Shown in pieces: positions 1-7,580 of a stretch of DNA of 7,580 bases. Both the position numbers and the translations under genes were made by a program. The DNA is from a virus. Its lineage: Duplodnaviria; Heunggongvirae; Uroviricota; Caudoviricetes. Numbering within the stretch: the stretch's first letter is position 1; each line of letters opens with the position of its first letter. The notes under the pieces were generated by a model. It worked only from the letters and a program-made list of their open reading frames with translations, did no database searches and was not told the origin of the DNA. The stretch lies in the IMG/VR virus record IMGVR_UViG_2740892210_000005. The stretch is one strand, 5' to 3'.

Positions 1-1185
1 CAGTCCGGCGTGAAGGTGTCTGCGGGCGATCGTCAGGAAGACAGTGCTCATGCTGCCCTGCTGACGCTTCAGGCAGAACTCCGGATGCTGGAGAAGCATG
101 CCGGAGCGAATGAGAAAATCAGCCAGCAGCGCCGGGATTTGTGGAAGGCAGAAAGTCAGTTCGCGGTACTGGAGGAGGCGGCACAACGTCGCCAGCTGTC
201 CGCACAGGAGAAATCCCTGCTGGCGCATAAAGACGAGACGCTGGAGTACAAACGCCAGCTGGCTGTACTTGGCGACAAGGTCACCTATCAGGAGCACCTG
301 AACGCGCTGGCACAGCAGGCGGATAAATTCGCACAGCAACAACGGGCAAAACGGGCCGCCATTGATGCAAAAAACCGGGGGCTGACTGACCGGCAGGCAG
401 CGCGGGAAGCCACGGAACAGCGCCTGAAGGAACAGTATGGCGATAATCCTCTGGCGCTGAATAACGTCATGTCAGAGCAGAAAAAGACCTGGGCAGCTGA
501 AGACCAGCTTCGCGGGAGCTGGATGGCAGGCCTCAGGTCAGGCTGGAGTGAGTGGGAAGAGAGCGCCACGGACAGTATGTCGCAGGTTAAAAGTGCTGCC
601 ACGCAGACCTTTGATGGTATTGCACAGAATATGGCGGCGATGCTGACCGGCAGTGAACAGAACTGGCGCAGCTTCACCCGTTCCGTGCTGTCCATGATGA
701 CAGAAATTCTGCTTAAGCAGGCAATGGTGGGGATTGTCGGAAGTATAGGCAGCGCCATTGGCGGCGGCGCATCAGCGTCAGGCGGTACAGCCATTCAGGC
801 AGCTGCGGCGAAATTCCATTTTGCGGCCGGAGGGTTTACGGGAACCGGCGGCAAATATGAGCCAGCGGGGATTGTTCACCGTGGTGAATTTGTCTTCACG
901 AAGGAGGCAACCAGCCGGATTGGCGTAGGAAATCTTTACCGGCTGATGCGCGGCTATGCCACCGGCGGTTATGTCGGTACACCGGGCAGCATGGTGGACA
1001 GCCGGTCGCAGGCGTCCGGGACGTTTGAGCAGAATAACCATGTGGTGATTAACAACGACGGCACGAACGGTCAGATAGGGCCACAGGCACTGAAGGCGGT
1101 TTATGACGTAGCCCGTAAGGCGGCAATGGATGTTGTGACCGGGCAGATGCGCGATGGTGGTCTGTTCTCCGGAGGTGGACGATGA
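1..1185 (+). CDS. H: Tail tape measure protein H, C-terminal ~395 codons (5'-partial; gene begins upstream of the window)
   Basis: Frame 1 is open from base 1 to the TGA at 1183-1185, so the CDS enters from upstream; the track's start at 10 is only the first in-frame Met. The translation closely resembles the C-terminal part of lambda gpH as I recall it, including the Gly/Ala-rich stretch and the ...RDGGLFSGGGR end. The stop overlaps the next start (ATGA at 1182-1185). Confidence 0.9.
   Translation, partial: QSGVKVSAGDRQEDSAHAALLTLQAELRMLEKHAGANEKISQQRRDLWKAESQFAVLEEAAQRRQLSAQEKSLLAHKDETLEYKRQLAVLGDKVTYQEHLNALAQQADKFAQQQRAKRAAIDAKNRGLTDRQAAREATEQRLKEQYGDNPLALNNVMSEQKKTWAAEDQLRGSWMAGLRSGWSEWEESATDSMSQVKSAATQTFDGIAQNMAAMLTGSEQNWRSFTRSVLSMMTEILLKQAMVGIVGSIGSAIGGGASASGGTAIQAAAAKFHFAAGGFTGTGGKYEPAGIVHRGEFVFTKEATSRIGVGNLYRLMRGYATGGYVGTPGSMVDSRSQASGTFEQNNHVVINNDGTNGQIGPQALKAVYDVARKAAMDVVTGQMRDGGLFSGGGR
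1171..1177 (+). promoter_or_regulatory. Shine-Dalgarno sequence (GGAGGTG) for M
   Basis: GGAGGTG at 1171-1177, 4 nt upstream of the ATG at 1182. Confidence 0.6.
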
Positions 1186-1511
1186 AAACCTTCCGCTGGA
1201 AAGTGAAACCCGGTATGGATGTGGCTTCGGCCCCTTCCGTAAGAAAGGTGCGCTTTGGTGATGGCTATTCCCAGCGAGCGCCTGCCGGGCTGAATGCCGA
1301 CCTGAAAACGTACAGCGTGACGCTTTCTGTTCCCCGTTGGGAGGCCACGGCGCTTGAGTCGTTTCTGGCTGAGCACGGGGGCTGGAAATCCTTTCTGTGG
1401 ACGCCGCCTTATGAGTGGCGGCAGATAAAGGTGACCTGCGCAAAATGGTCGTTGCGGGTCAGTATGCTGCGTGTTGAGTTCAGCGCAGAGTTTGAACAGG
1501 TGGTGAACTGA
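1182..1511 (+). CDS. M: Tail tip assembly protein M (109 aa)
   Basis: 109-aa ORF, the same length as lambda gpM, and the translation matches my recollection of it. It follows H with a 4-nt ATGA overlap and has an upstream GGAGGTG. Confidence 0.9.
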   Translation: MKTFRWKVKPGMDVASAPSVRKVRFGDGYSQRAPAGLNADLKTYSVTLSVPRWEATALESFLAEHGGWKSFLWTPPYEWRQIKVTCAKWSLRVSMLRVEFSAEFEQVVN

Positions 1512-2209
1512 TGCAGGATATCCGGCAGGAAACACTGAATGAATGCACCCGTGCGGAGCAGTCGGCCAGCGTGGTGCTCTGGGAAATCGATCTGACAGAG
1601 GTCGGTGGAGAACGTTATTTTTTCTGTAATGAGCAGAACGAAAAAGGTGAGCCGGTCACCTGGCAGGGGCGACAGTATCAGCCGTATCCCATTCAGGGGA
1701 GTGGTTTTGAACTGAATGGCAAAGGCACCAGTACGCGCCCCACGCTGACGGTTTCTAACCTGTACGGTATGGTCACCGGGATGGCGGAAGATCTGCAGAG
1801 TCTGGTCGGCGGAACGGTGGTCCGGCGTAAGGTTTACGCCCGTTTTCTGGATGCGGTGAACTTCGTCAACGGAAACAGTAACGCCGATCCGGAGCAGGAG
1901 GTGATCAGCCGCTGGCGCATTGAGCAGTGCAGCGAACTGAGCGCGGTGAGTGCCTCTTTTGTACTGTCCACGCCGACGGAAACGGACGGCGCTGTTTTTC
2001 CGGGACGTATCATGCTGGCCAACACCTGCACCTGGACCTATCGCGGCGATGAGTGCGGTTATCACGGTCCGGCGGTCGCGGATGAATATGACCAGCCAAC
2101 GTCCGATATCACGAAGGATAAATGCAGCAAATGCCTGAGCGGTTGTAAGTTCCGCAATAACGTCGGCAACTTTGGCGGCTTCCTTTCCATTAACAAACTT
2201 TCGCAGTAA
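1511..2209 (+). CDS. L: Tail tip protein L (232 aa), with a C-terminal cysteine cluster
   Basis: 232-aa ORF, the same length as lambda gpL. Its start overlaps the M stop by 1 nt (TGATG). The C-terminus carries clustered cysteines (CTWTYRGDECGYHG...DKCSKCLSGCKF), consistent with the reported Fe-S cluster of gpL. Confidence 0.9.
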   Translation: MQDIRQETLNECTRAEQSASVVLWEIDLTEVGGERYFFCNEQNEKGEPVTWQGRQYQPYPIQGSGFELNGKGTSTRPTLTVSNLYGMVTGMAEDLQSLVGGTVVRRKVYARFLDAVNFVNGNSNADPEQEVISRWRIEQCSELSAVSASFVLSTPTETDGAVFPGRIMLANTCTWTYRGDECGYHGPAVADEYDQPTSDITKDKCSKCLSGCKFRNNVGNFGGFLSINKLSQ

Positions 2210-2214
2210 ATCCC

Positions 2215-2990
2215 ATGACACAGACAGAATCAGCGATTCTGGCGCACGCCCGGCGATGTGCGCCAGCGGAGTCGTGCGGCTTCGTGGTAAGCACGCCGGA
2301 GGGGGAAAGATATTTCCCCTGCGTGAATATCTCCGGTGAGCCGGAGGCGTATTTCCGTATGTCGCCGGAAGACTGGCTGCAGGCAGAAATGCAGGGTGAG
2401 ATTGTGGCGCTGGTCCACAGCCACCCCGGTGGTCTGCCCTGGCTGAGTGAGGCCGACCGGCGGCTGCAGGTGCAGAGTGATTTGCCGTGGTGGCTGGTCT
2501 GCCGGGGGACGATTCATAAGTTCCGCTGTGTGCCGCATCTCACCGGGCGGCGCTTTGAGCACGGGGTGACGGACTGTTACACGCTGTTCCGGGATGCTTA
2601 TCATCTGGCGGGGATTGAGATGCCGGATTTTCATCGCGAGGATGACTGGTGGCGTCACGGTCAGAATCTCTATCTGGATAATCTGGAGGCCACAGGGCTG
2701 TATCAGGTGCCGTTGTCATCAGCACAACCGGGCGATGTGCTGCTGTGCTGTTTTGGTTCATCGGTGCCGAATCATGCCGCAATTTACTGCGGTGATGGCG
2801 AGCTGCTGCACCATATTCCTGAACAACTGAGCAAACGAGAGAGGTATACCGACAAATGGCAGCGACGCACACACTCCCTCTGGCGTCACCGGGCATGGCG
2901 CGCATCTGCCTTTACGGGGATTTGCNNNNNNNNNNNNNNNNNNNNNNNNNNNNNNNNAACGATTTGGCCGCCGCATCGACCTTCGTGTGA
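2215..2990 (+). CDS. K: Tail tip assembly protein K (JAB/MPN + NlpC/P60 domains), reading frame interrupted by a 32-N block near the 3' end
   Basis: The ORF starts 6 nt after the L stop. An HSHPGGLPWLSEAD motif (HxH-x7-S-x2-D, JAMM-like) is present, and a Cys/His-containing region (DCYTLF ... HAAIY) follows, consistent with NlpC/P60. Upstream of the Ns the frame reads ...AFTGIC; downstream, at 2958-2990, it reads NDLAAASTFV then TGA. The join is only in frame if the 32 Ns are removed. The ORF continuing to 3003 in the track is an artefact of the Ns. Lambda's annotated 199-aa K would correspond to the internal ATG at 2359. Confidence 0.8.
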
Positions 2991-3559
2991 AAACGGGGGC
3001 TGAAGCCATCCGCGCACTGGCCACACAGCTCCCGGTGTTTCGTCAGAAACTGAGCGACGGCTGGTATCAGGTACGGATTGCCGGGCGGGACGTCAGCACG
3101 TCCGGGTTAACGGCGCAGTTACATGAGACTCTGCCTGATGGCGCTGTGATTCATATTGTTCCCAGAGTCGCCGGGGCCAAGTCAGGTGGCGTATTCCAGA
3201 TTGTCCTGGGGGCTGCCGCCATTGCCGGATCATTCTTTACCGCCGGAGCCACCCTTGCAGCATGGGGGGCAGCCATTGGGGCCGGTGGTATGACCGGCAT
3301 CCTGTTTTCTCTCGGTGCCAGTATGGTGCTCGGTGGTGTGGCGCAGATGCTGGCACCGAAAGCCAGAACTCCCCGTACACAGACAACGGATAACGGCAAA
3401 CAGAACACCTATTTCTCCTCACTGGATAACATGGTTGCCCAGGGCAATGTTCTGCCGGTTCTGTACGGTGAAATGCGCGTGGGGTCACGCGTGGTTTCTC
3501 AGGAGATCAGCACGGCAGACGAAGGGGACGGTGGTCAGGTTGTGGTGATTGGTCGCTGA
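2856..3559 (+). CDS. I: Tail tip assembly protein I (223 aa once the N block is removed), overlapping the 3' end of K in another frame
   Basis: From the ATG at 2856 the frame reads MAATHTLPLASPGMARICLYGDL up to the Ns. After the Ns it resumes (Q)RFGRRIDLRVKTGAEAIRALATQ... and continues to the stop at 3557-3559. 704 nt minus 32 N is 672 nt, i.e. 223 aa plus stop, the length of lambda gpI. The C-terminal half is Gly/Ala-rich and hydrophobic, as in gpI. The track entry 2987..3559 is the 3' portion of this gene. Confidence 0.8.
2926..2957. other. Block of 32 ambiguous bases (N) inside the K/I overlap: assembly gap, masking or placeholder
   Basis: Directly visible. Joining the flanks (..GGGGATTTGC | AACGATTTGG..) restores both the K frame (G-I-C-N-D-L) and the I frame (G-D-L-Q-R-F-G) without any missing codon. 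Confidence 0.95.
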
Positions 3560-3577
3560 TGCAAAATGTTTTATGTG

Positions 3578-3598
3578 AAACCGCCTCCGGGCGGTTTT
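3578..3598 (+). terminator. I-J intergenic GC-rich hairpin plus T-tract (candidate weak intrinsic terminator or RNA-stability element)
   Basis: AAACCGCC (3578-3585), loop TCCG, GGCGGTTT (3590-3597) form an 8-bp stem, followed by a T-rich stretch. It sits between the I stop (3559) and the J start (3620). Confidence 0.4.
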
Positions 3599-3606
3599 AT
3601 CGTTTA

Positions 3607-3610
3607 TGGA
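3607..3610 (+). promoter_or_regulatory. Shine-Dalgarno sequence (GGAG) for J
   Basis: GGAG at 3607-3610, 9 nt upstream of the J ATG at 3620. Confidence 0.5.
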
Positions 3611-3616
3611 GCATGA

Positions 3617-7006
<3,390 letters not shown>

Positions 7007-7024
7007 ATTTTATAACCCAGAACG

Positions 7025-7050
7025 GGCGTCAGAAATGACGCCTTTTTTAT
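7025..7050 (+). terminator. Rho-independent terminator-like hairpin after J
   Basis: GGCGTCA (7025-7031), loop GAAA, TGACGCC (7036-7042) form a 7-bp perfect stem, followed by TTTTTTATT (7043-7051), 19 nt after the J stop. Confidence 0.65.
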
Positions 7051-7061
7051 TGCAGAAAAGC

Positions 7062-7067
7062 GAGAGG
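7062..7067 (+). promoter_or_regulatory. Shine-Dalgarno sequence (GAGAGG) for lom
   Basis: GAGAGG sits 5 nt upstream of the ATG at 7073. Confidence 0.5.
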
Positions 7068-7072
7068 TAATT

Positions 7073-7580
7073 ATGCGTAAAGTTTGTGCAGCCATTTTGT
7101 CTGCAGCCATCTGTCTGGCCGTATCCGTCGCGCCTGCATGGGCGTCTGAGCAGCAGGCCACGCTGAGCGCGGGGTATCTTCATGCCCGGACGAACGCTCC
7201 CGGTAGCGATAATCTTAACGGGATTAACGTGAAATACCGTTATGAATTTACGGACACGCTGGGGCTGGTGACGTCATTCAGTTATGCCAATGCCAAAGAT
7301 GAGCAAAAAACGCATTACAGCGATACCCGCTGGCATGAAGATTCAGTGCGTAACCGCTGGTTCAGCGTGATGGCGGGGCCGTCTGTGCGCGTGAATGAAT
7401 GGTTCAGCGCGTATGCGATGGCGGGTATGGCTTACAGCCGTGTTTCGACTTTCTCCGGAGATTATATCCGCGTAACTGACAACAAGGGGAAAAAGCACGA
7501 TGTGCTGACCGGAAGTGATGACGGTCGCCACAGCAACACGTCTCTGGCGTGGGGGGCTGGCGTGCAGTTTAACCCGACCG
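7073..7580 (+). CDS. lom: Lom-family outer membrane protein (Ail/Lom/OmpX/PagC beta-barrel family), 3'-partial, running off the window end
   Basis: From the ATG at 7073 the frame is open to the window end, which is why it is absent from the ORF track. The translation MRKVCAAILSAAICLAVSVAPAWASEQQATLSAGYLHARTNAPGSDNLNGINVKYRYEFTDTLG...WHEDSVRNRWFSVMAGPSVRVNEWFSAYAMAGMAYSRVSTFSGDY... has a signal peptide ending at an AWA-S cleavage site, and closely resembles lambda Lom as I recall it. The position directly downstream of J is canonical. Confidence 0.9.
   Translation, partial: MRKVCAAILSAAICLAVSVAPAWASEQQATLSAGYLHARTNAPGSDNLNGINVKYRYEFTDTLGLVTSFSYANAKDEQKTHYSDTRWHEDSVRNRWFSVMAGPSVRVNEWFSAYAMAGMAYSRVSTFSGDYIRVTDNKGKKHDVLTGSDDGRHSNTSLAWGAGVQFNPT

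Follow-up and report, generated by a model that had tools for sequence, protein, structure and literature searches.

Introduction

Two overlapping tail genes of a lambdoid prophage, K and I, are interrupted in a public draft record by a run of 32 N, and the question raised by this locus is whether these letters stand for bases that the genome possesses, in which case both genes would be disrupted, or whether they were introduced during assembly and the two genes are intact. The stretch of DNA analysed here (7,580 bases, hereafter the window) was traced through an exact match of its J protein to assembly GCA_001592505.1, where it makes up the whole of record BBUS01000059.1, Ns included (locus L040 in our numbering). 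A base composition check of the whole window showed that its sole non-ACGT run is the 32 N at positions 2926–2957 (no strand), abutted by GGGGATTTGC on the left and AACGATTTGG on the right.

Results and discussion

The N run and the deposited reading frames

A sequence-only reading of this DNA had placed a 32-N block at the K/I overlap, which is correct provided that I starts at the ATG at 2856; it had quoted the flanks exactly as they read in the record, and had remarked that the Ns split one CAA codon of I. The codon concerned is codon 24, whose first base is base 2925, leaving C on the left of the run and AA on the right. In the K frame base 2925 completes codon 237, and the run therefore sits between codons 237 and 238. 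Because 32 mod 3 = 2, the deposited K frame shifts through the Ns and continues as a 262-aa open reading frame (2215–3003). The gene calls stored with BBUS01000059.1 were made on the N-containing sequence and give K as 2215–3003 (262 aa, with no Pfam family) and I as 2987–3559, while in the sister contig BBUT01000076.1 K is called as a protein of 247 aa with both of its domains. Scans for composition and for promoters and terminators around the N run revealed nothing out of the ordinary.

Organisation of the surrounding tail module

The window holds a lambda-type tail module in the order H-M-L-K-I-J-lom, with all genes on the plus strand. It opens within the tape-measure gene, a lambda H homologue of which the 3' part is present (1–1185, truncated by the contig start; PF09718 Tape_meas_lam_C, with the aligned annotation 'phage tail tape measure protein'). 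This is followed by a homologue of minor tail protein M (1182–1511, 109 aa; PF05939 Phage_min_tail), whose counterpart in phage 21 carries an annotation citing similarity to lambda M, and by a homologue of minor tail protein L (1511–2209, 232 aa; PF05100 Phage_tail_L), an identical copy of which is present in many E. coli assemblies. Downstream of K and I lies the central tail fibre and host-specificity gene J (3620–7006, 1128 aa; open reading frame and gene call), and a J-specific 48-mer had 0 matches in the genome contigs but was found in 32 IMG/VR loci and 3 metagenome loci, none of them the source record. A terminator-like hairpin with a T run, recognised by consensus match only, is located between J and lom (7024–7049, plus strand), and the window closes within the 5' part of a gene for an Ail/Lom-family outer-membrane protein (7073–7580, truncated by the contig end; PF06316 Ail_Lom and aligned annotations).

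Four other loci (L043, L045, L048 and L051) have identical L and K proteins and a 1128-aa J, and downstream of their tail-fibre genes they carry EspF-like (PF04806) and AvrPphF-ORF-2-like genes (for example, L043 18721–20193). The prophage type suggested for the window is that of the effector-carrying lambdoid prophages of attaching-effacing E. coli. Along its length the window is of the SC418 type from 1 to ~5750 and of the type of IMG/VR contig L028 from ~3077 to 7580, with recurrent mosaic boundaries at ~3076–3090 (gene I) and ~5750 (gene J); a frequent allele boundary is found ~130 nt downstream of the K/I junction, where many lambdoid loci lose similarity.

Gene K after removal of the Ns

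When the Ns were deleted, the open reading frame from the ATG at 2215 encoded a 247-aa K with the C-terminus FTGICNDLAAASTFV (also given as GICNDLAAASTFV) directly before the stop codon. On the window, codons 1–237 of this tail tip assembly gene occupy 2215–2925, and codons 238–247 (NDLAAASTFV) with the stop occupy 2958–2990, both on the plus strand, as judged from the spliced open reading frame, the domain search and the alignment with lambda. The spliced protein matched Prok-JAB (PF14464; residues 3–104, 52.3 bits, cut-off 25) and NlpC/P60 (PF00877; residues 111–224, 49.2 bits, cut-off 23), and with both domains above the Pfam thresholds it is assigned by sequence to the lambda gpK family (JAB/MPN plus NlpC/P60). 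Translation from Met49 yields 199 aa, the length annotated for lambda K, and residues 49–247 were identical to lambda K at 195/199 positions (196/200 counting the stop).

The difference between the two lengths has its own explanation. The lambda reference NC_001416 (~14255–14275) is without one G that is present in the window at 2340–2360 (GGAGGC-TATTTCC in lambda versus GGAGGCGTATTTCC), a base situated just upstream of the annotated K start (L052 was compared at ~860–875), and this missing G accounts for the 199-aa annotation of lambda K. A 247-aa K with the full JAB N-terminus is encoded by the window and its relatives, whereas in lambda those 46 residues fall in another frame. Two bases ahead of the N run, at window position 2924, there is a further, frequent polymorphism (G/A; GGGGATTTGC versus GGGGATTTAC); the GGGGATTTAC variant, which changes Cys237 of K to Tyr, occurs in lambda, in phage 21 and in many IMG/VR loci.

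Gene I after removal of the Ns and the position of its start

Deleting the Ns likewise gave, from the ATG at 2856, a 223-aa I with the N-terminus MAATHTLPLASPGMARICLYGDLQRFGRRIDLRVKTGAEA (also given as MAATHTLPLASPGMARICLYGDLQRFGRR). Codons 1–23 and the first base of codon 24 of this tail assembly gene lie at 2856–2925, where they overlap K in another frame, and the remainder of the spliced reading frame, from the last two bases of codon 24 to the stop, lies at 2958–3559 (plus strand throughout). The lambda annotation starts I at the ATG homologous to 2856, and the K/I overlap after splicing is 103 nt, equal to that of lambda (14773–14875). Spliced I was identical to lambda gpI at 221/223 residues (222/224 counting the stop), matched Lambda_tail_I (PF06805) over residues 14–97 with 100.1 bits (cut-off 23.8), and aligned with PDB 8iyk chain I over residues 1–223 (E = 8.8e-141); given a score above threshold and similarity over its full length, its sequence places it in the lambda gpI family PF06805.

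The start of I varies among assemblies (190, 191, 200, 210 and 213 aa), and lambda and phage 21 have the 223-aa protein; in the window the candidate starts are 2856, 2895 and 2987. RefSeq-style calls, and also gene callers that meet the Ns, take I from the GTG at 2987, downstream of the Ns, giving 190 aa. Since the Pfam match starts at residue 14, it loses its initial 20 residues in this widespread 190-aa version. In the PDB entries of the lambda tail tip gpI has 223 aa, and distant PDB homologues align from residues 11–19; together with the Pfam match at 14–97, these alignments indicate that I truly begins upstream of the Ns and spans them.

The lengths that the sequence-only reading had anticipated for an N-free sequence, 247/199 aa for K and 223 aa for I, were thus recovered in full, the former through the spliced reading frame, Met49 and the domains, and the latter with near identity to lambda gpI. 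That reading had also considered that the flanks might fail to match K/I homologues on alignment; they did align, and both spliced genes were ~98–99% identical to lambda.

The junction in sister assemblies and homologues

The closest comparison is offered by BBUT01000076.1 (GCA_001592525.1, the next accession in the series), a contig of 7546 bp (7580 − 32 − 2) without Ns, which was identical to the window at 7546/7546 shared positions and in which the junction reads GGGGATTTGC followed directly by AACGATTTGG. This sister contig (L041) begins 2 bases after the window start and shares its end base, 7580; that both assemblies broke at nearly the same places, in the tape-measure gene and in lom, is consistent on sequence grounds with repeat-bounded contigs. 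A further record, DABPIC010000062.1, was identical to window positions 1592–7580 except for 1 mismatch, and its junction is contiguous. Literature searches on the BBUS and BBUT accessions and their assemblies yielded nothing of relevance.

More distant relatives gave the same result. In each of the best matches listed from the phage collection and the complete E. coli genomes, 1069 bases of the record lined up with 1101 of the query, 32 fewer, and ~2795 complete E. coli genomes covered at least 80% of the query. The 30-mers flanking the N run are directly adjacent in RM14723 (gap 0), and the coordinates to which the left and right halves of the window map follow on from each other in both SC418 and Sx181-0-1 (gap 0). 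The shorter spans of the homologues and the adjacent flanks therefore identify the Ns as added length rather than replaced bases. Of 38 junction-spanning loci that were fetched, 37 were ungapped at this point, the sole exception being the window's own record, and lambda is contiguous there as well.

The three contig collections (viral, genome and metagenome) were also scanned for the same flanks separated by an insert of 3–33 nt, with a pattern that was shown to be able to match N in a target; there were 0 matches, while the contiguous 33-nt junction, used as the positive control, was found in at least 120 IMG/VR stretches. One 6.4-kb stretch (L100, IMGVR_UViG_2695420808_000007) has two same-strand copies of the junction 33-mer, at 2743–2775 and 4320–4352, ~1.6 kb apart, which may reflect a tandem mis-assembly or a duplication.

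We conclude that the N run does not represent a feature of the genome. The sequence-only reading had preferred a contiguous true sequence with the Ns as an artefact, and this view gains support from the clean sister contig, the 37 other loci, lambda and the adjacent flanks in complete genomes, with the zero length itself deduced from relatives and the sister assembly.

Origin of the N run

The 32 Ns are very probably a scaffolder's gap placeholder in a short-read draft, to judge from the comparisons above, with a true distance of zero, K and I intact and a tail module that is ordinary. Under this proposal, the contig would have broken at the junction into two pieces (1–2925 and 2958–7580); read-pair links would have rejoined the two contigs into one small scaffold; the estimated distance of 32 would have been filled with N and the gap left unclosed; and in the real genome base 2958 would directly follow base 2925. 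We infer both that a scaffolder wrote the Ns and that the break was caused by the multicopy, mosaic nature of the module in such genomes. The tail module is found at a median of 2–3 sites, and at as many as 14, in individual E. coli genomes; repeats of this sort break up short-read assemblies, which presumably explains why the contig ended at the junction. About 15 of 80 IMG/VR junction loci end within 600 nt of the junction, a rough figure, since a locus may end where its contig does not. A counterpoint is that an exact abutment, with neither overlap nor lost bases, is not every scaffolder's output. The number 32 may also be a default k-mer or minimum-overlap value in some assemblers, and we gave this no weight.

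The first alternative is that the Ns hide real sequence of the strain, either an insert of ~32 bp or an insertion sequence of under-estimated size, which would disrupt K and I together. Its attraction is that an insert of 32 bp, a length not divisible by 3, would shift the frame in both genes, that the zero length is judged from relatives and a sister assembly, and that IS1203/IS629 insertions are known in the tail module of some O157 genomes. Three O157-type genomes (H53–H55; NZ_CP032793.1, NZ_CP169544.1 and NZ_CP169546.1) have an IS1203-family (IS3-like) element interrupting the homologue of window positions 1–2925, and real insertions into the tail module therefore do occur elsewhere. At the junction itself, however, neither a target-site duplication nor foreign end sequence is present, and the flanks rejoin homologous sequence without an extra base; the sister contig, which matches the window throughout its 7546 bp, carries no insert; inserts of 3–33 nt were absent at this junction from all three collections scanned; and an insertion sequence of ~1.3 kb is not normally bridged by an estimated gap of 32. 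A real insertion is accordingly considered very unlikely, and the same applies to the alternative offered by the sequence-only reading, an insertion of ~32 bp inactivating K and I, given 0 such inserts in the collections and an abundance of contiguous junctions. Were it true, two tail-assembly genes would be lost at once and an effector-type lambdoid prophage would be tail-less and grounded.

Less probable still is that the Ns mask 32 real but non-genomic bases, such as a fragment of adaptor or vector, or represent a mask applied by the data provider. Contamination screens mask internal adaptor matches of about 30–34 bases, and a few stretches of one of the collections are documented as N-masked. 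A mask replaces bases one for one, however, and the bases beneath it would then need to have been inserted into genomic sequence that is otherwise perfectly contiguous; the parts joined in adaptor chimeras normally come from unrelated places, and the stored gene calls had already been made on the N-containing sequence. The biology would be unchanged under a mask, the run being an artefact and K and I intact. The sequence-only reading had left the choice between artefact and mask, and the first part of this stands while a mask is less likely than a scaffold gap, the Ns being extra length against every homologue.

A chimeric join, in which the left half of one lambdoid prophage was linked to the right half of another, has next to no probability: although SC418/O157-type prophages are the nearest relatives of the left part (99.8%) and L028 that of the right part (99.6%), mismatches to L028 persist to 3076, near-identity to SC418 persists to ~5750, and the same mosaic without Ns is present in two independent assemblies (L039 and L041). 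The Ns were thus rejected as a mosaic or chimeric join, with the switches of lineage being at ~3076–3090 and ~5750 and not at 2925/2958.

Consequences and comparison with known systems

With the N run read as a scaffold gap, its only consequence would be mis-annotation, K appearing as a 262-aa frameshifted open reading frame without domain matches and I as a protein of 190 aa. An automated survey could thereby wrongly score the prophage as tail-defective; the matter is one of data quality only and holds no new biology.

Compared with the scaffold gaps of draft whole-genome shotgun records (assembly_gap), the run is typical in consisting of N only, in lying in a short draft record within a multicopy prophage module and in being closed in a sister assembly; it differs in that its true length here would be exactly 0, and the stated length of 32 gives two overlapping genes a frameshift that is not real. 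Phage lambda (NC_001416; K 14276–14875, I 14773–15444) shares the gene order H-M-L-K-I-J-lom and the 103-nt K/I overlap, and its junction sequence is that of the window except for G/A at 2924 and C/T at 2968; in contrast to lambda, K of the window is the longer 247-aa frame with a complete JAB N-terminus, and for lom and the 3' third of J the window carries alleles other than those of lambda and of the closest complete genomes. The left part of the window is 99.8% identical to prophages of O157:H7, a likeness to the effector-carrying lambdoid prophages of EHEC and EPEC, which we take to be those of the Sp14/CP-933U-like kind, whereas the window, unlike these prophages, ends in lom, with any cargo lying outside its view.
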